Shown: positions 21,303 to 30,604, counted from the first letter of the stretch. The stretch: DNA of 64,000 nt from Paracoccaceae bacterium (GCA_020446815.1 JAGRDY010000001.1:5203-69202); one strand, 5' to 3'. Program-made: numbers and translations. Notes: a model not told the origin generated them from the sequence alone.

Positions 21303-21428
21303 CAGTACCCCTACCGGGGCGCAGGCTTGTCAGGCATGTTTTTACGCGGCGGCTCGCCGGCATTTGCAGCCCGGGCTTGGCCAGGCGCGCTTGCCGTGGC
21401 AGGTTGGGCCATCGGTGAGGGAGTCGGC

Positions 21429-21512
21429 ATGTCAGAACCCGGATTGCGACGGATAGCTTTCTTGCTGTTGCTGGCACTGACGCTCTATGTCGGCATCGCG
21501 GGGGGCGGCTGA
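21429..21512 (+). CDS. Candidate 27-aa single-pass membrane peptide
   Basis: MSEPGLRRIAFLLLLALTLYVGIAGGG, preceded by GAGGGA 7 nt upstream. Its TGA overlaps the ATG of the next gene (TGATG). Support comes from position only. Confidence 0.3.
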   Translation: MSEPGLRRIAFLLLLALTLYVGIAGGG

Positions 21513-22384
21513 TGGCGATACGATATGGCGGCAAGCACAGCCCTTCGGCCCAGAGCGGCGCACCCCCAGGTGCCCCGACCATCCCCAGCCGCGATGAACG
21601 CCGCGCGAAATGGCTTTTCCTGGCCGCGATCCCCCTGGCGGTCAGAGCCTTCTGGCAGGAACCGATCGGGCTGGTACAGAACCTTGGCGCCTTTGCCACG
21701 CTGGTTCTTGCGGCCTGGCTGACGCGTGAAGGTGTTCGTGCGGCATCAGCCTATGCCGCCCGCCGCAGTTCCCGCCGGCCCGCGATCCCGCGCAAGCTGA
21801 TGGCAACCGCCTTGACCGGCATGGGTCTGTTTCTTGGCGTAATCGCCAATGGCGGCAATCCGTGGTCGGGCGGTCTGCTCGGCCTTGCCGGCAGTGCCCT
21901 GCATCTTTTCGCCTTCGGCCCCGATCCGCTGACCGACAAGGCCATGGACGAGATCGACATTTTCCAGCAAGACCGCGTGGCGCGGGTTCTGGTCGAAGGC
22001 GAAGCCTATCTGAAGGCAATGAAAGATGCCGCCCTCCGCGCCGGAGACCGTGACATCACCGCCCGTGTCGACCGGTTCCTGATTTCGGCGCGAACCATGT
22101 TCCGCACCGTCGAGGAAGACCCGCGTGACCTGACCGCCGCCCGCCGCTATCTGGGTGTCTACCTGATGGGCGCCCGCGACGCGACGATCAAGTTCGCCGA
22201 TATCTGGACGCGCAGCAAGGATCAAAAGGCACGCGCGGATTTTCAGGCGCTCCTGACCGATCTGGAAACGAATTTTGACGCCCGCACCCGAAGCCTGCTA
22301 TCCGATGACAAGACCGACCTTGAAATCGAGATTGACGTCTTGCGCGACCGCCTGAAACGTGAAGGCCTCAAGACGCAACTGTAA
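21512..22384 (+). CDS. XpaC-like (5-bromo-4-chloroindolyl phosphate hydrolysis family) membrane protein
   Basis: N-terminal TM helices (WLFLAAIPLAV, LGAFATLVLAAWL, GMGLFLGVIA, LLGLAGSALHLFAF) followed by a helical C-domain. Sits immediately upstream of telA, as in the known XpaC-TelA pairs. Confidence 0.7.
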   Translation: MAIRYGGKHSPSAQSGAPPGAPTIPSRDERRAKWLFLAAIPLAVRAFWQEPIGLVQNLGAFATLVLAAWLTREGVRAASAYAARRSSRRPAIPRKLMATALTGMGLFLGVIANGGNPWSGGLLGLAGSALHLFAFGPDPLTDKAMDEIDIFQQDRVARVLVEGEAYLKAMKDAALRAGDRDITARVDRFLISARTMFRTVEEDPRDLTAARRYLGVYLMGARDATIKFADIWTRSKDQKARADFQALLTDLETNFDARTRSLLSDDKTDLEIEIDVLRDRLKREGLKTQL

Positions 22385-22412
22385 TGTCACGGCCCACATC
22401 CGGAGAGTAACC

Positions 22413-23597
22413 ATGTCTGAATCCATACGCGAAAAAGCCTCCAAGGCCCTGCCCGCCGTCGAGGAAGTGACAGCGGTGGTGCTGGCCGAACCCGTCAGCG
22501 ATGTCGTGCCGATGGAAAAGGCCGATGCGAAGATGGCAGATGCCATTCGCAGCCGGATCGCCGAACTCGACATGTCCGACAGCGGTTCCATTGTCGATTT
22601 CGGCTCGGCCGCACAGGCCGAGTTGCAGGAAATCAGTCAGGCGATGCTTGCCGATGTACGCAACAAGGATGTCGGGCCTGCGGGCGACAGCCTGCGAAAT
22701 ATCGTCACCACGATCCGGGGCTTTTCGGTTTCCGAGCTCGATGTGCGGCGCAAGGCGTCATGGTGGGAAAGGCTGCTGGGCCGCACGGCACCCTTCGCGA
22801 AATTCCTCGCCCGCTTTGAAAATGTGCAGGGCCAGATCGACAAGATCACCGATGATCTTCTGGGCCACGAGCACAAGCTGCTCAAGGACATCAAGTCGCT
22901 CGACCTGCTTTATGAAAAGACGCTGGAGTTCTATAACGAACTGGCGCTCTATATCGCGGCAGGCGCGGAAAAGATCCGCCTGCTGGATGCCAATGACATT
23001 CCCGCCAAAGAGGCCACGGTGGCCGCCGCCAGCGAAACCGACAAGGTGATGGCCGCGCAGGAACTGCGCGATCTGCGCGCCGCGCGCGACGATCTGGAAC
23101 GGCGGGTGCACGATCTGAAACTGACGCGACAGGTGACGATGCAGTCGCTGCCCTCGATCCGCCTGGTACAGGAAAACGACAAATCGCTTGTCACCAAGAT
23201 CAATTCCACGCTGGTCAACACCGTACCGCTTTGGGAAACGCAACTGGCCCAGGCCGTCACCATCCAGCGGTCGGCCGAGGCGGCGACGGCCGTACGCGAG
23301 GCCAATGACCTGACCAACGAACTGCTGACCGCCAACGCCCGGAACCTGCGTCAGGCCAATGCCGCGGTACGCACCGAGATGGAGCGCGGCGTGTTCGACA
23401 TCGCGGCGGTGAAATCCGCCAATTCCGAACTGATCGGCACCATCGAAGACAGCTTGCGGATCGCCGATGAAGGCAAACGCAAGCGCGCCGAGGCCGAAGT
23501 GGAATTGCAAAAGATGGAAGCCGACCTGCGCGATACCCTGGCCGCGGCCCGCGCCAGAAAAACCGGCACCGGCGACACCATCGGCACCAGTGCCTGA
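22413..23597 (+). CDS. telA: Toxic anion resistance protein TelA/YaaN family
   Basis: From the ATG at 22413 (GGAGAG Shine-Dalgarno sequence). All-helical 394-aa protein with TelA-family blocks (IVDFGSAAQAELQEISQAML, KSLDLLYEKTLEFYNELALYIAAG, LPSIRLVQENDKSLVTKINSTL). Confidence 0.88.
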   Translation: MSESIREKASKALPAVEEVTAVVLAEPVSDVVPMEKADAKMADAIRSRIAELDMSDSGSIVDFGSAAQAELQEISQAMLADVRNKDVGPAGDSLRNIVTTIRGFSVSELDVRRKASWWERLLGRTAPFAKFLARFENVQGQIDKITDDLLGHEHKLLKDIKSLDLLYEKTLEFYNELALYIAAGAEKIRLLDANDIPAKEATVAAASETDKVMAAQELRDLRAARDDLERRVHDLKLTRQVTMQSLPSIRLVQENDKSLVTKINSTLVNTVPLWETQLAQAVTIQRSAEAATAVREANDLTNELLTANARNLRQANAAVRTEMERGVFDIAAVKSANSELIGTIEDSLRIADEGKRKRAEAEVELQKMEADLRDTLAAARARKTGTGDTIGTSA

Positions 23598-23604
23598 AAT
23601 TTCG

Positions 23605-24552
23605 ATGCGCAACAACCCGTCACGCATGCGGCTTGTCGTGCCTCTGATCCTGGTGGCGGGGCTTTCGGGTTGCGATGGCCTGGGCCCAGTCAGACCCGCC
23701 CCGTGGCGCGCAAACATGCCCGACACCACGAGTATCCCGGCAGAGTCCGCCGAAACCCAGATTGCCCGGGCCTATTATCAAAGGGTGGAGGCGAACTATC
23801 TGGCGCAGGGCCAATACCGCACGGATGGCGGCGGCACGGACGCGCCTTTTGGTGCCCGCGATCTGGCGCGGAACTTCCTGAACATCGTATTTTATGACGA
23901 GTTTTCCGATGAGGGCGGGCAGCTTGTTCCGGCCAGAACGCAAAACCGGCTGCATCGCTGGCAGCAGCCGATCAGACTTGCGATCGAATTTGGCGCCTCG
24001 GTTCCGGCGCGGCAACGCCTGAAGGACAAGGCGGACATCGCCGCCTATCTCGCAACCCTTTCGCGATTGACGGGTTTGCCCATGCACATCACGACACAGG
24101 GCGCGAACCACATCGTACTGATACAGAACATCGACGAAAGGCAAGCCGCCGCGGCCCGCCTTCAGGAAATTGCGCCCGAAGCCAGTGAGGCTGCTATACG
24201 GTCCATCAAGAGAATGAAGCCCGATACCTATTGCACGGTTTTCGCCTTTACCACCGGCGACAGCGCCATCTACGATCGTGCGGTCACGGTGATCCGCGGC
24301 GAATTGCCCGATCTGCTGCGGCTGGCATGCATTCATGAAGAACTGGCCCAGAGTCTCGGGCTGGTCGACGACAGCCCCAAGGCGCGGCCTTCGATTTTCA
24401 ACGACAACCAGGAATTCGCGCTTTTGACCAGGCAGGACGAGATGATGCTAAGGATGCTCTACGATCCGCGGCTGAAACCGGGTATGACCCTGGCCGAGGC
24501 ACGCCCCATCATCGAAACCATCGCCCGTGAACTTGTCGGCGGCGATAGCTGA
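23605..24552 (+). CDS. Lipoprotein, DUF2927-like (family recalled from memory, to verify)
   Basis: From the ATG at 23605. Signal plus lipobox MRLVVPLILVAGLSGC. Conserved-looking CIHEELAQSLGLVDDS block near the C-terminus. Confidence 0.6.
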   Translation: MRNNPSRMRLVVPLILVAGLSGCDGLGPVRPAPWRANMPDTTSIPAESAETQIARAYYQRVEANYLAQGQYRTDGGGTDAPFGARDLARNFLNIVFYDEFSDEGGQLVPARTQNRLHRWQQPIRLAIEFGASVPARQRLKDKADIAAYLATLSRLTGLPMHITTQGANHIVLIQNIDERQAAAARLQEIAPEASEAAIRSIKRMKPDTYCTVFAFTTGDSAIYDRAVTVIRGELPDLLRLACIHEELAQSLGLVDDSPKARPSIFNDNQEFALLTRQDEMMLRMLYDPRLKPGMTLAEARPIIETIARELVGGDS

Positions 24553-24574
24553 GATCGAACAACAGGAGTTAGGT

Positions 24575-25696
24575 ATGGGTATTCTCGATTTTCTGACCGG
24601 TGAATTTATCGACGTCATCCACTGGACCGATGACACCCGCGACACCATGGTCTGGCGGTTCGAGCGCGAAGGCCACGCGATCAAATACGGCGCCAAGCTG
24701 ACCGTCCGTGAAGGCCAGACTGCGGTCTTTGTCCACGAAGGCCAGATTGCCGATGTGTTCACCCCCGGCCTCTACATGCTTGAAACCAACAACATGCCGA
24801 TCCTGACCACGCTGCAACACTGGGATCATGGCTTCCAGTCTCCGTTCAAGTCAGAAATCTATTTCGTCAACACCACCCGTTTTGCCGATCAGAAATGGGG
24901 TACCAAAAACCCCATCATCGCCCGCGATCCGGAATTCGGCCCGGTACGGCTGCGGGCCTATGGCACCTATGTGATGCGAATTGGCGACGCGGCGAAATTC
25001 ATGACCGAAATCGTCGGCACCGATGGTGAATTTACCGCCGATGAAATCAGTTTCCAGATCCGCAATATCATCGTGCAGGAGTTTTCGCGAGCCATTGCGG
25101 GATCGGGGATTCCCGTGCTCGACATGGCCGCCAATACTGCCGATCTTGGCAAGCTGGTGGCCAACGCCATTGCCCCCACGATTGCCGCATATGGCATGAG
25201 TATCCCGGAATTTTATATCGAGAACATTTCCCTGCCGGAGGCCGTCGAAGCGATGCTGGACAAGCGGACCTCGATGGGAATCGTCGGCGATCTGGGCCGG
25301 TTCATGCAATATTCTGCCGCCGAATCCTTGGCGCGCGGCGACGGATCGGCCGGTGCGGCAATGGGCGCGGGGATGGGTGCGGGCGTGGGTATGGCCATGG
25401 GCACCAGGATGCTTGCGCAAGCCGGTCCCTGGGGCAGCGTGCCACAGACCCAGCCCGCGGCACCACCTCCTCCACCGCCGCCGCCCGTTGAAAAGGTCTG
25501 GCACATTGCCGAAGCGGGCGCGACAAGGGGGCCCTTTGGCCGTGGCCATCTGGGACGGCTTGCCAGCGGCGGCAGTTTCACCCGCGATACACTGGTCTGG
25601 TCGCCGGGTCAGGACGGCTGGAAACCGGCGGGCGAGATCGCCGAGCTTGCCCAGCTGTTTACCGTGATGCCCCCACCGCCGCCGCCATCAGCCTAA
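24575..25696 (+). CDS. SPFH/Band-7 protein of the YdjI ('virion core protein'-like) type with C-terminal GYF_2 domain
   Basis: From the ATG at 24575 (AGGAG Shine-Dalgarno sequence). MGILDFLTGEFIDVIHWTDDTRDTMVWRFEREGHAIKYGAKLTVREGQTAVFV is the characteristic YdjI-type N-terminus. The C-terminus has P8 and P6 tracts around a WxxxxxGxxxGP...W GYF_2-like segment. Confidence 0.8.
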   Translation: MGILDFLTGEFIDVIHWTDDTRDTMVWRFEREGHAIKYGAKLTVREGQTAVFVHEGQIADVFTPGLYMLETNNMPILTTLQHWDHGFQSPFKSEIYFVNTTRFADQKWGTKNPIIARDPEFGPVRLRAYGTYVMRIGDAAKFMTEIVGTDGEFTADEISFQIRNIIVQEFSRAIAGSGIPVLDMAANTADLGKLVANAIAPTIAAYGMSIPEFYIENISLPEAVEAMLDKRTSMGIVGDLGRFMQYSAAESLARGDGSAGAAMGAGMGAGVGMAMGTRMLAQAGPWGSVPQTQPAAPPPPPPPPVEKVWHIAEAGATRGPFGRGHLGRLASGGSFTRDTLVWSPGQDGWKPAGEIAELAQLFTVMPPPPPPSA

Positions 25697-25705
25697 GGCA
25701 GCGCC

Positions 25706-26815
25706 GTGCAGACCGCCGCCGAGGAGCATCGTTTTCCCTGCACCCAATGCGGTGCCGATCTGCGGTTCGCACCGGGCGGGGGGGAATTGGTCTGCGACCA
25801 TTGCGGCCACACCGAAACAGTCGCCCAGCCGCAAGCCAGTCACCAGCCGATCCCGGAACTGGATTTCCGCCGCGCGGCAGAGGCGCGACTGCCAGAGACG
25901 GAAATTGAGCCGGTCCGCATTTCCAGGTGCCCGAACTGCGGGGCCGAGGTAGCCTTCGATCCGGCGGTTCACGCCACCGAATGCCCGTTCTGCGCCACAC
26001 CGGTCGTCGCCGATACCGGCGAAAACCGCCGGATCAAGCCGCGCGGGCTGGCACCCTTTGTGGTGCGGGAATCCGATGCACGCAAAGCCATGGCCGACTG
26101 GCTCGGGTCATTGTGGTTCGCACCCTCCGGTCTTGTCGATTACGCCCGCAAGGGCAGGGCATTGCAGGGCATCTACGTCCCTTACTGGACGTTCGACGCG
26201 GCTACCGCCTCGCGCTACCGGGGGCTGCGCGGAACCATTTATTACGAAAGCCGGCAGGTGCAGGTTCGCGACCAGCAGGGACGGGTGCGTCGTGAAACGC
26301 GGCAGGTACAGAAGATCCGCTGGCAGCCCGCATCCGGCCATGTCGCGCGAAACTTCGACGACGTTCTGGTGCTCGCTTCACGCTCGCTTCCCGAAAGCCA
26401 TACCACCGCGCTGATGCCTTGGGATCTGGCCCGGCTGGAACCTTTTCGGCCCGAATACCTGGCCGGTTTCCGGGCCGAAAGCTACACGGTCACACTTCAG
26501 GAGGGCATGGTCGACGCACGCCGGCAGATGGACCGGATGATCGAACGCGATGTCCGTTTCGACATCGGCGGGGACCGCCAGCAGATCGACCGGATCGAAA
26601 CCACGGTCTCGGATGTGACATTCAAGCATATCCTGCTGCCGGTCTGGACCGCGGCCTACCGGTTCCGCGGCCGCAGCTTCCGCTTCGTGATCAATGGCCA
26701 GACAGGCAAGGTACAGGGCGAACGGCCCTGGTCCATCGTGAAAATCGCCTTTGCCGTTTTCTTCCTCGCGGTGCTGATTGCCGCCGGGACCTATTTTGCC
26801 CAGCTTCAGAAATAG
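25706..26815 (+). CDS. Double zinc-ribbon protein with C-terminal membrane anchor (YdjG-like)
   Basis: CTQCGADLRFAPGGGELVCDHCGH and CPNCGAEVAFDPAVHATECPFCATP zinc ribbons. C-terminal TM helix WSIVKIAFAVFFLAVLIAAGTYF. Confidence 0.7.
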   Translation: MQTAAEEHRFPCTQCGADLRFAPGGGELVCDHCGHTETVAQPQASHQPIPELDFRRAAEARLPETEIEPVRISRCPNCGAEVAFDPAVHATECPFCATPVVADTGENRRIKPRGLAPFVVRESDARKAMADWLGSLWFAPSGLVDYARKGRALQGIYVPYWTFDAATASRYRGLRGTIYYESRQVQVRDQQGRVRRETRQVQKIRWQPASGHVARNFDDVLVLASRSLPESHTTALMPWDLARLEPFRPEYLAGFRAESYTVTLQEGMVDARRQMDRMIERDVRFDIGGDRQQIDRIETTVSDVTFKHILLPVWTAAYRFRGRSFRFVINGQTGKVQGERPWSIVKIAFAVFFLAVLIAAGTYFAQLQK

Positions 26816-26831: not shown

Positions 26832-27245
26832 TCAGCCGATCGGTATCCGGCGAGACTTCGCCAGCGCCTCCGGCCCGGCCTTGGCAACCGACAGGGTCAG
26901 CACCCCTTCCTTCAGATCCGCCGTGATCTTTTCAGGATCGGCATCGGCAGGCAGCCGGAAGCTGCGGCTGAAGGCGCCGTACTGGCGTTCGGAAAAATAC
27001 CATGTTTCGCCTTTTTCCTCACGGCTTTCCTTTTTTTCGCCTTTCACCGTCACCACCCCGTCGTCAACGGTGATTTCGATGTCCTCCTGCCTGACGCCCG
27101 GAAGTTCCACGGCAATCCGGTAAACCTTGTCGTCGGATGATGCCTCCGAGGCGGGCGCCACCCATTCGGCCAATCGCGCACCAAGATGACGGAACGGTTC
27201 GTAAAACGTGGGCCAGAACGCGCCCGTAGGGGATTTCTCAACCAT
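26832..27245 (-). CDS. Hsp20/alpha-crystallin small heat-shock protein
   Basis: From the ATG at 27245 (GAGGAG Shine-Dalgarno sequence). YRIAVELPGVRQEDIEITVDDGVVTVKGEKK...FSRSFRLPADADPEKITADLKEGVLTLSV is a canonical ACD. Confidence 0.9.
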   Translation of the reverse strand: MVEKSPTGAFWPTFYEPFRHLGARLAEWVAPASEASSDDKVYRIAVELPGVRQEDIEITVDDGVVTVKGEKKESREEKGETWYFSERQYGAFSRSFRLPADADPEKITADLKEGVLTLSVAKAGPEALAKSRRIPIG

Positions 27246-28798: not shown

Positions 28799-30604
28799 TC
28801 AGCGTTCGGTCAGTTTCAACTCGATCCGCCGGTTCTGCGCGCGTCCTTCGGGTGTATCGTCCGACGCCACGGGCCAATATTCGCCAAATCCCGTCGCCGC
28901 CAGACGTTCCGGCGGGAAACCAAGGTCATTTTGCATGAAGCGAACGACCGACAGGGCGCGCCCCTGGCTCAGTTCCCAGTTGTCGCGATACTTGCCCGTG
29001 CCGGCCAGCGGCACATTGTCGGTATGACCATCGACGCGGATGATCCAGTCGATTTCGGGCGGAATGGCGGCCGCGACCTCTTGCAGGGTCGACACCACCC
29101 CGGCGATCTGGCTGCGCCCTTCGGCGGAAAGATCGGCCGAGGCCGGTTCAAACAGCACTTCGGAAGAAAAGACAAAGCGGTCGCCGACAACACGCACCCC
29201 TTCACGCCCGGCCAACACTTCGGAAAGTTTGCCAAAGAATTCGGAACGATAGCGCGAAAGCTGCTTGGTTTCGGCTTTCAACGCCTCGGCTTCAGCCGCC
29301 AAACGCTTGGCTTCCTCTGCCAGCCTGAGCTTTTCGGCCTCCTCAAGGGCAGCGCGGCGGCGTTGTTCCGAGGCCACCTGTGCCAGGGCTGAATTGAGCT
29401 GCGCGCCCAGCGTCTCGATCTGAACCTTGGCCTCTTTGTCTTTGGCCGCGGAGGCATCCAGCAAACCCTGAAGCGCGCCAAGCTGGCCGCGCAAGGCGGA
29501 CACCTGACTGTTGAGGAGTGCCAGCTTGCGGGCGGCTTCGGCCGAAAGGGCCTTTTCATTGTCCAGCGCCGAATTGGCTTCGGCCAGAAGCGCGGCGCGT
29601 TGGTCGGCCTCGGTCATCGACGCATCGGCAGCCGTTTCGGCGGCTTTCCGCGCGGCCAGTGCGGCCGCGATCTGGCGCTCCATCTTCTGACGCATCTCGC
29701 TCAACGCCGCCTGATTGCTCGCCACCGAGGCGCGCGCCTCTGCAAGTTCTTCGGCTGTGGACGTCTGCACCAGCAGCGCCGCGGCCAGTTTGCCATCGAG
29801 ATCCTTGCGTGCCGCATTCGCCGCCGCAAGAAGGGTAAGCGTGTCTTCTGCCTCGCGGCGCTCATTTTCGAGCGCGAGTGTCATCGACGTCAGCTCGTCT
29901 TCGGCGCCTTTGAGTTTTTCACGCAAGGCGGCGGCGGCGGCGGCTTCGGTCAACCGGGCCGCTTCCGCATCCGACAGTTTTTCCGCTGTGGCGTCTCTTT
30001 CGGCGCGAAGCTCGGCCGTCATCGCCTCAAGCGCTTCACGCCGCGCTGCGGCAAGGCGCGCGGCTTCGACCTGTGCGTCTATTTCCTGCCGCGCCTTTGC
30101 GACCGCGAGGTCAAGCGCCTCTTGCGCGGTCAAAAGCTCGTCGCGGGCCCTGGTCAGGTCGGCGACCTCGGCGCGTGCCGTATCACGTTCGCCAAGCAGC
30201 GTTGCGACCTGGGCTTCGAAATCGGTAATCCTGGCGTTGGCGGACGACAGTTTCCGGGTTTGTCCTTCGATCTGCGAAGTCAGCGTGGCGATCAGCGAAG
30301 ATTGTTGATCGGCCTTGGACCGGGCAGCGGCCAGATCGGCGTTAAGCCCGGTCACGTCGCTTTCCAGAGCCGCGCTGCGGCGACGTTCGAGGCCCAGCGC
30401 ATCAGCAAGCCCGGCCACTTGCGACGACAATGCGTCAAGTTCGACATCCTGGGTGCTGATCGTTTCACGCAAGGAAAACTGCACGATCATGAAGATCGTC
30501 AGAACGAACATGAGCACCATCAGAAGCGCGGTCATCGCATCGACGAAACCCGGCCAGATGGTCGACGAGAATCTTTGTGCGCTGCGCCCGCCTGAAAGTG
30601 CCAT
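28799..30604 (-). CDS. MotB-like TM plug plus ~400-aa coiled coil plus OmpA-type peptidoglycan-binding domain
   Basis: N-terminus WPGFVDAMTALLMVLMFVLTIFMIV parallels the MotB YADFMTAMMAFFLVMWL segment, including the Asp (codon 30539-30541). Long A/E/L/R-rich heptad-like region. C-terminal OmpA block (VDGHTDNVPL...NWELSQGRALSVVRFM...NRRIELKL). Confidence 0.8.
   Translation of the reverse strand: MALSGGRSAQRFSSTIWPGFVDAMTALLMVLMFVLTIFMIVQFSLRETISTQDVELDALSSQVAGLADALGLERRRSAALESDVTGLNADLAAARSKADQQSSLIATLTSQIEGQTRKLSSANARITDFEAQVATLLGERDTARAEVADLTRARDELLTAQEALDLAVAKARQEIDAQVEAARLAAARREALEAMTAELRAERDATAEKLSDAEAARLTEAAAAAALREKLKGAEDELTSMTLALENERREAEDTLTLLAAANAARKDLDGKLAAALLVQTSTAEELAEARASVASNQAALSEMRQKMERQIAAALAARKAAETAADASMTEADQRAALLAEANSALDNEKALSAEAARKLALLNSQVSALRGQLGALQGLLDASAAKDKEAKVQIETLGAQLNSALAQVASEQRRRAALEEAEKLRLAEEAKRLAAEAEALKAETKQLSRYRSEFFGKLSEVLAGREGVRVVGDRFVFSSEVLFEPASADLSAEGRSQIAGVVSTLQEVAAAIPPEIDWIIRVDGHTDNVPLAGTGKYRDNWELSQGRALSVVRFMQNDLGFPPERLAATGFGEYWPVASDDTPEGRAQNRRIELKLTER

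Follow-up and report, generated by a model that had tools for sequence, protein, structure and literature searches.

In a 64,000-nucleotide (nt) stretch of DNA from a Paracoccaceae bacterium, hereafter the window, whose coordinates are used throughout, six open reading frames (ORFs) packed on the plus strand between positions 21429 and 26815 encode a micro-peptide, an XpaC-like protein, a TelA/YaaN-family protein, a DUF2927 lipoprotein, an SPFH protein and a zinc-ribbon (ZnR) protein. They probably represent a conserved proteobacterial operon for envelope or membrane stress, issued from the fusion of two pairs, each made of a membrane anchor and a soluble sub-membrane scaffold, that act together. 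In Firmicutes, the two anchor-scaffold pairs are separate operons. A first-pass annotation of the window had proposed that the two modules are joined here in one tightly packed gene block without PspA, and this was borne out. Its further remark, that no experimental description of such a composite system was known in alphaproteobacteria, held within the searchable literature, where no link of TelA or XpaC with SPFH or YdjG-type genes was found; an earlier mention in the 2012 analysis of Ter systems by Anantharaman and colleagues is possible.

Gene order across genomes

Similarity to the ZnR protein guided the sampling of neighbourhoods. A genome scan seeded with a narrow ZnR alignment, with one genome per species, yielded 80 loci, all from Rhodobacterales. 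Wider diversity was obtained from profile searches with distant representatives, tblastn searches of plasmids and a metagenome scan, and the neighbourhoods of distant members of the ZnR family, of five plasmid or chromid records and of 80 metagenome loci were examined. The classifiable loci, whose numbers reflect this sampling and are not prevalence figures, fall into a five-gene class, XpaC-TelA-DUF2927-SPFH-ZnR (85 loci, most or all from Rhodobacterales), a four-gene class without DUF2927 and with a micro-ORF before XpaC (15 loci), an SPFH-ZnR pair class (11 loci) and a class with ZnR only (8 loci). When the window proteins were used for tblastn searches of Rhodobacterales, the five-gene order was present in essentially all loci whose upstream sequence was long enough, the exceptions being Rhodosalinus halophilus, which has SPFH-ZnR only, and one metagenome-assembled genome (MAG) without DUF2927 (L074).

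Within Rhodobacterales taken alone, shared ancestry could explain the adjacency of these genes, because the flanking RluB (upstream) and PfkB (downstream) genes are also frequently syntenic in many genera. The four-gene loci are found in a Geminicoccaceae MAG, another alphaproteobacterial MAG, a gammaproteobacterial MAG and metagenome contigs, with GC contents of 31-74%; their spacing is mostly tight (3-54 nt), and their flanking genes are unrelated between loci. Since the core is kept with unrelated flanks and over this range of GC content, its linkage operates at the level of the operon and is not leftover synteny. The block is thus conserved far beyond close relatives; the first-pass annotation had placed the system in alphaproteobacteria, a confinement contradicted by the gammaproteobacterial MAG and the metagenome loci. 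A neighbour-joining analysis of the ZnR proteins groups the TelA-linked loci in a single clade, with the DUF2927-bearing, Rhodobacterales-type loci nested inside and a few secondary losses, and the pair-only loci of Vibrio, Comamonas, Tsukamurella, Aminicenantes and Enterococcus (the latter with a TPM gene) branch outside. This topology argues that the fusion arose once and was kept over wide divergence.

The six genes and their products

The ORFs were read directly from the sequence, and their junctions, of -1, 28, 7, 22 and 9 nt, agree with those first annotated (Table 1). At the first of them, the TGA of the micro-ORF (21510-21512) shares a base with the ATG of XpaC (21512-21514) in a TGATG overlap, from which translational coupling of the two genes is predicted. 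Purine-rich ribosome-binding sites precede the micro-ORF (GGGAG, 6 nt before the start) and, as annotated, TelA (GGAGAG, ATG at 22413) and SPFH (AGGAG, start at 24575). No plus-strand terminator-like or sigma-70-like sites were found inside the cluster, which fits a single transcription unit, as weak evidence, and neither an Rfam family nor a notable hairpin was found in the leader.

Table 1. Genes of the cluster and the convergent gene that follows it (window coordinates; aa, amino acids).
Feature	Position	Strand	Remarks
Micro-ORF, 27 aa	21429-21512	+	First gene of the cluster; predicted small membrane protein with a single transmembrane helix
XpaC-like protein, 290 aa	21512-22384	+	Pfam Halogen_Hydrol; 28-nt gap to TelA
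TelA/YaaN-family protein, 394 aa	22413-23597	+	Pfam TelA; 7-nt gap to lipoprotein
DUF2927 lipoprotein, 315 aa	23605-24552	+	ATG at 23605; Pfam DUF2927; 22-nt gap to SPFH
SPFH protein, 373 aa	24575-25696	+	Pfam Band_7_1 + GYF_2; 9-nt gap (25697-25705) to ZnR
ZnR protein, 369 aa	25706-26815	+	GTG start at 25706; Pfam Zn-ribbon models
hsp20	26832-27245	-	Pfam HSP20; convergent, ends 16 nt after the ZnR gene

In Pfam searches, five products scored well above the curated gathering scores, and the micro-peptide belongs to no family. The families that had been named (XpaC, TelA, SPFH with GYF_2 and ZnR, with DUF2927 for the lipoprotein) were recovered in this way, as was HSP20 for the convergent gene, which does end where the annotation had put it. 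Scans with NCBIfam, PADLOC and PHROGs added nothing beyond a match of TelA to a phage 'tellurite resistance' PHROG (2e-50). The absence of PspA from the cluster was confirmed: no PspA or TPM gene was found there or among the genes called about 10 kb on either side. The PspA_IM30 profile matched none of the six products, and the TPM_phosphatase profile matched nothing in the cluster or its flanks; the Enterococcus locus used for comparison (see below) has one match to the latter.

The micro-ORF product, MSEPGLRRIAFLLLLALTLYVGIAGGG, is predicted by hydropathy to have one transmembrane (TM) helix, in keeping with its first description as a one-helix peptide; existing gene calls on the source contig chose a longer start for it, giving 58 aa. 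Among 92 related loci, 87 have a small hydrophobic ORF that terminates no more than a few bases from the XpaC start, and in 40 its stop overlaps the XpaC ATG as it does in the window, whereas an opposite-strand control with looser positional limits returned such an ORF in 11 of the 92. The micro-peptides of Rhodobacterales are alike (consensus ..QKIAYvaLLvLLFGVSTGWLGGL), and in the four-gene loci outside this order the peptide before XpaC has a basic residue followed by hhGhhLLhxTVGLxSCQAh and is often lipobox-like. Because a small hydrophobic ORF so regularly abuts XpaC, and because the peptides are similar both within and outside Rhodobacterales, the micro-ORF is real and a core partner of XpaC rather than an accessory. 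The first-pass annotation had counted the micro-peptide and the lipoprotein as two extra envelope components; this description fits the DUF2927 protein, a lineage-specific addition, and not the micro-peptide, which accompanies XpaC in nearly all loci.

The XpaC-like protein matches PF10112 over residues 105-277 (6.1e-22, 79 bits for a cut-off of 29.8), has a hydrophobic N-terminus and is encoded directly upstream of TelA, all of which identify it as a member of the family. Four N-terminal hydrophobic segments are followed by a predicted cytoplasmic helical domain (Halogen_Hydrol). The four TM helices of the first description are supported by four conserved hydrophobic blocks in an alignment of XpaC proteins (A10), but two of the four segments fail a strict hydropathy cut-off; the motifs EDPRDL..ARKFL and DLDVEIEVL are also conserved in this alignment. 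No gene is inserted between XpaC and TelA in the Rhodobacterales loci, where the median gap is 36 nt, and no homology of the two proteins to each other was detectable with hhalign (probability 0.15%). In three loci (L008, L024 and L034), a second protein resembling XpaC, of 276-302 aa and without Pfam match, is encoded upstream of the micro-ORF.

TelA matches nearly the entire PF05816 profile (positions 6-331 of 332; 9.4e-105, 350.8 bits for a cut-off of 30), has no TM segment by hydropathy and appears to be soluble. Its identity is 48-59% with its counterparts in non-Rhodobacterales four-gene loci and 67-77% with those of Rhodobacterales-type loci (alignment A6). A single-sequence AlphaFold2 (AF2) model of low confidence (predicted local distance difference test, pLDDT, 57.6) is all-helical, with helices of 60-115 residues. 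A profile search of PDB sequences returned no solved homologue, only noise from cytochrome b562 helices, and it found no PspA, Vipp1 or ESCRT-III entry even at E<=10. According to a published prediction, TelA forms sub-membrane structures (PMC7824862), and in Listeria it contributes to nisin tolerance (as cited in PMC12791056).

The DUF2927 protein (PF11150, 2e-59; no weaker Pfam match was found) carries a signal segment identified by hydropathy and an LVAGLSGC lipobox whose Cys is conserved in at least 90% of the aligned sequences (A7). Two further Cys residues are invariant, as is a block of the form C..HEE..Q..GL.ND...RPSIFND. The gene is found in the 85 five-gene loci and is absent from 14 non-Rhodobacterales four-gene loci and from the Rhodobacterales locus L074, which makes it an add-on confined to Rhodobacterales-type loci. 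No solved homologue was found in a profile search of PDB sequences, which returned only signal-peptide noise from LpqN, and no mention of DUF2927 was found in the searchable papers.

The SPFH protein is composed of a Band_7_1 domain (PF13421, 7.5e-101, 336.5 bits over the whole 211-position profile), a Gly/Ala/Met-rich linker, a poly-Pro stretch, a GYF_2 domain (PF14237, 3.1e-17) and a C-terminal poly-Pro stretch. It has no TM segment by hydropathy and is predicted to be cytosolic. Band_7_1, the lack of an anchor of its own, a low-complexity linker and a small C-terminal module, here GYF_2, make it a protein of the YdjI/SamI type, and it is related to the YdjI-type protein of Enterococcus (BLASTP 1e-10). 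Its identity with the partners of ZnR genes across several phyla is 38-76% (A9), and in the same alignment PPPxP motifs on both sides of GYF_2 (residues ~297-304 and ~366-371) are nearly invariant across phyla, with or without TelA. Eukaryotic GYF domains bind proline-rich peptides. Given this property and the near invariance of PPPxP, self-association or autoinhibition of the SPFH protein through GYF_2 and PPPxP, within or between molecules, is plausible by analogy.

In the ZnR protein, a pair of CxxC...CxxC zinc ribbons precedes a conserved alpha/beta domain, and the C-terminal part holds a TM helix (residues 344-362); eight Cys residues are invariant and the TM helix is conserved in alignments A1 and A8. 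The family numbers 7283 full-length representatives at 50% clustering (E<=1e-3), and the nearest named relative is an Albidovulum MAG protein (88% identity); the window as a whole has identical counterparts among ENA metagenome scaffolds. With the Enterococcus homologue, the alignment starts at the first ribbon and reaches as far as the TM helix (28% identity, BLASTP 2e-41). Two ribbons, a middle domain, a terminal TM helix and an adjoining Band_7_1 gene characterize it as a YdjG/SamG-type protein. An AF2 model built from a 50-sequence alignment (pLDDT 89.7, predicted template modelling score 0.83) shows two small ribbons, helices on very long beta-strands and a terminal helix. A Foldseek search of the PDB with this model returned nothing significant, the best hits being spurious long-hairpin matches (E 3.7e-3, TM-score about 0.12). 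This protein and its homologues are commonly entered in public databases as 'primosomal protein N' (replication factor Y) - superfamily II helicase', 'TFIIB-type zinc finger', 'ribosomal protein S27E' or 'RNA polymerase subunit RPC12', names to which the zinc ribbons alone gave rise. The protein lacks a helicase domain; it is tail-anchored and pairs with the SPFH protein.

Two proposed anchor-scaffold pairs and the competing explanations

Each half of the cluster has relatives elsewhere. In B. subtilis, YdjG has been described as combining a pair of zinc ribbons with an uncharacterised domain and a TM segment (PMC11237479). Together with YdjH, it recruits YdjI, a soluble SPFH protein, to the membrane, and YdjI is needed for PspA foci (PMC8581546). 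A 2026 preprint renamed ydjGHI samGHI and described a PspA-independent role for SamGHI in this organism. What the window shares with pspA-ydjGHI (pspA-samGHI) is the adjacency of genes for a tail-anchored protein, with two ribbons, a conserved domain and one TM helix, and for a cytosolic SPFH protein that combines Band_7_1 with a low-complexity linker and a small C-terminal domain; in the Bacillus system, membrane proteins recruit the SPFH protein. The window differs in having neither PspA nor the TPM-domain protein YdjH/SamH, in the C-terminus of the SPFH protein, which is GYF_2 flanked by PPPxP rather than the zinc ribbon of YdjI and of the Enterococcus protein, and in gene order, as SPFH precedes the anchor and the pair is fused to XpaC-TelA. 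The Enterococcus locus encodes a Band_7_1 protein that ends in a double zinc ribbon, together with a ZnR protein and a TPM-domain protein, and is thus a YdjI/YdjG/YdjH set without adjacent PspA. The stand-alone pairs of a Vibrio coralliilyticus plasmid, Aminicenantes, Tsukamurella and others, in which the SPFH protein is of the Band_7_1+GYF_2 type, share with the window their gene order and GYF_2/PPPxP tail (ZnR 32-51% and SPFH 42-58% identity), but they have no XpaC, TelA, micro-ORF or DUF2927 and fall outside the TelA-linked clade. Because no SPFH-ZnR pair sampled outside Bacillus has an adjacent PspA gene, PspA-less pairs are the norm and not a peculiarity of the window, contrary to the special importance first given to this absence; the PspA link of Bacillus is missing from every other sampled locus of the SPFH module.

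As for the other half, the Firmicute operons xpaC-yaaN/telA (B. subtilis, Listeria lmo1966-1967, E. faecium xpaC-telA) contain the same adjacent pair in the same order and have been tied to envelope-active antimicrobials and to the organization of phospholipid microdomains. Unlike them, the window has a conserved micro-TM ORF before XpaC, and its pair runs into the SPFH-ZnR genes; its XpaC also appears to have two extra N-terminal hydrophobic segments, to judge from the start of the Pfam model at residue 105. More distantly, flotillin/NfeD and HflK/C operons also encode an SPFH scaffold with a dedicated membrane partner. Flotillin and HflK/C belong to other SPFH subfamilies and have their own membrane anchors, and their partners (NfeD/YqiJ and FtsH) are unrelated to the Zn-ribbon anchor.

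From these likenesses, we infer the physical interactions, the stress signal and the output of the operon as follows. The first pair would be formed by XpaC, with four TM segments and the micro-TM partner encoded upstream, and the all-helical, soluble TelA, which XpaC would hold and restrain at the cytoplasmic membrane. The second would comprise the tail-anchored double-zinc-ribbon protein, similar to YdjG/SamG, and the cytosolic SPFH protein, similar to YdjI/SamI, the anchor bringing the oligomeric SPFH protein to the inner face of the same membrane. Upon membrane perturbation, both assemblies might act on the same patches and stabilise or reorganise lipid domains; in Rhodobacterales, the DUF2927 lipoprotein, presumably periplasmic, might connect the system with the outer part of the envelope. 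Two anchor-effector pairs operating side by side are favoured because XpaC and TelA are never split, the other junctions tolerate insertions, and the genetics of E. faecium tie TelA to XpaC. In that species, deletion of xpaC lowers the daptomycin minimal inhibitory concentration, alters daptomycin binding and redistributes phospholipid microdomains, effects that all require intact telA (PMC6811118). XpaC is therefore more likely than the SPFH protein to be the partner of TelA.

A number of observations weigh against a joint role of the two pairs. Unrelated genes interrupt the DUF2927-SPFH junction in 10 of 61 Rhodobacterales loci, and one or two genes, often of the cytochrome b561 family, separate SPFH from ZnR in 33 of 75, so that strict co-transcription of the two halves is not obligatory. 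Partners have been lost within the TelA-linked clade, as seen with solo ZnR genes, the Rhodosalinus pair and the Paracoccus locus without XpaC. The sampling of loci by ZnR similarity is a further limit, as is the comparison with B. subtilis YdjG and YdjI, made from their published description with the Enterococcus SPFH-ZnR-TPM locus as a sequence proxy.

The main rival explanation takes up some of these points and holds that the two modules are functionally independent, do not form a joint complex, and are merely co-regulated in one envelope-stress regulon. XpaC-TelA occurs alone in Firmicutes and SPFH-ZnR alone in many phyla, insertions are tolerated at the DUF2927/SPFH and SPFH/ZnR junctions and at no XpaC-TelA junction, and in B. 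subtilis xpaC-yaaN and pspA-ydjGHI are separate operons, both of the sigma-W regulon (PMC3498285). Against this stands the contiguity of the four genes, with gaps usually of 3-54 nt, in lineages ranging from 31 to 74% GC and between unrelated flanks. As such persistence usually marks products that work together, and not merely at the same time, independence of the modules seems rather unlikely.

A more ambitious version of the joint role can also be considered, in which TelA would be a membrane-remodelling or sealing effector, analogous but unrelated to PspA and ESCRT-III. The SPFH platform, tethered by the zinc-ribbon protein and self-assembling through GYF_2-PPPxP, would mark damaged patches, where a sensor made of XpaC and the micro-peptide would release TelA, and DUF2927 would turn the ensemble into a trans-envelope damage-response machine in Rhodobacterales. 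Taken as a whole, this scenario is unlikely; if true, it would supply a mechanism for TelA and XpaC and a client for the widespread PspA-less SPFH-ZnR pairs.

According to the first-pass annotation, TelA might replace PspA as the effector recruited directly by the SPFH scaffold and thus be its functional analogue. Gene adjacency by itself makes it possible that TelA is a direct client of the SPFH protein: the operon has YdjG- and YdjI-like genes but no PspA, and TelA takes the position that a soluble helical partner would have; the low-confidence AF2 model gives it very long helices, and YdjI is required for PspA foci in B. subtilis (PMC8581546). However, SPFH-ZnR pairs with neither PspA nor TelA are common, and the scaffold therefore needs no such client; GYF_2 and PPPxP are equally present in the TelA-less pairs. 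XpaC, moreover, adjoins TelA in all loci that have XpaC, the E. faecium data connect TelA with XpaC (PMC6811118), and the TelA profile, as mentioned above, retrieved no PspA, Vipp1 or ESCRT-III sequence from the PDB. This direct replacement of PspA appears distinctly doubtful.

A system dedicated to toxic-anion (tellurite) resistance or, in the manner of Ter, to phage defence rather than to general membrane integrity is highly improbable: although TelA owes its name to tellurite resistance and matches the corresponding phage PHROG, a TerC gene lies just upstream of the cluster in several orthologous loci, and Ter components have been proposed to hinder the entry of phages or xenobiotics (PMC7824862), none of the five proteins scanned (all but the 27-aa micro-peptide) matched a PADLOC defence model, no TerB, TerC, TerD or TerZ was found in the window cluster or its 10-kb flanks, and the neighbourhood, flanked in many genera by RluB (upstream) and PfkB (downstream), is stably chromosomal and no variable island. 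Ter and kilA-telAB clusters share with the window a TelA-family protein and, for some orthologous loci, the TerC neighbour; they differ by their TerB, TerD, TerZ or TelB-type genes and by their plasmid or island setting.

The preferred reading, two anchor-scaffold pairs acting together, has some practical bearing. To our knowledge, TelA and XpaC have long been linked to tolerance of tellurite, nisin and daptomycin without a mechanism, and work on the YdjG/YdjI (SamG/SamI) module has been confined to B. subtilis. An operon that joins both in many proteobacteria argues that TelA/XpaC and SamG/SamI act on the same cytoplasmic-membrane process, and it unites the unexplained TelA/XpaC pair with the narrowly studied SamG/SamI module in a single system open to experiment, with a testable lead on the role of TelA. 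New, uncharacterised players are the conserved micro-membrane protein, the DUF2927 lipoprotein with its invariant HEE..Q, and the fold of the anchor, which has no solved counterpart. Carriers include the cultivable Ruegeria, Sulfitobacter, Leisingera and, with a variant devoid of XpaC, Paracoccus, which offer simple genetic systems. In Paracoccus ferrooxidans, the locus (L087) lies on the large secondary replicon pFER4 (1.46 Mb) and reads TelA-DUF2927-SPFH-ZnR; a 150-aa ORF upstream of TelA in Paracoccus was considered as a truncated XpaC and rejected, being unrelated to it. The ZnR gene is also found on large secondary replicons or chromids in four other Paracoccus records (H2, H4-H6). Paracoccus may thus be a convenient model, though with a variant locus.

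Upstream element and neighbouring genes

In many Rhodobacterales loci, a bipartite element, (TT)CCCCTAG(C/T)AA-N13-(ATC)GCCTAAGTT with the core form CCCTAG(C/T)AA-N13-CCTAAGTT, is found about 145-157 nt before the XpaC ATG, for instance at L009:5557-5588, L052:5158-5189 and L072:4723-4754. A loose pattern of it gave 30 matches in the 240-nt upstream windows of 92 loci, for 0.35 expected if matches were evenly spread, and a stricter pattern is all but absent from the rest of the loci and has no match in the 64-kb window, whose counterpart, at about 21308-21347, is displaced and degenerate. The element looks like a dedicated promoter of the -35/-10 type or an operator. Consensus patterns for EcfG, RpoH and sigma-70 were not enriched upstream of the cluster. 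In a distant genome with a stand-alone SPFH-ZnR pair (L083:8217-10439), the pair is followed on the same strand by genes for an extracytoplasmic function (ECF) sigma factor, a zf-HC2 anti-sigma factor and a DUF4097 protein, which hints at regulation of that pair by envelope stress.

The genes inserted between SPFH and ZnR (for example in L035, L023, L031, L038, L054, L075 and L078) often code for membrane proteins of 140-190 aa ending in ...FH.WRH..LRDNALR.M.P; a longer form matches the prokaryotic cytochrome b561 family (PF01292, 1e-12), and a shorter form has no Pfam match. A TerC-family gene (PF03741, 8e-35) is located directly upstream of the cluster in L014, L041, L055, L063 and L074, a loose connection with the Ter network that is missing from the window. 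In a minority of Rhodobacterales loci (for example L003, L005, L007, L014 and L033), hsp20 directly follows ZnR, and this recurrence may reflect a shared stress context or mere synteny. Farther downstream in the window, the minus strand at 28799-30604 encodes a 601-aa protein in which a very long coiled coil lies between an N-terminal TM segment and a C-terminal OmpA domain (PF00691, 1.6e-16), beside a gene whose 401-aa product has no Pfam match; the two resemble a MotB-like or peptidoglycan-tethering protein pair.

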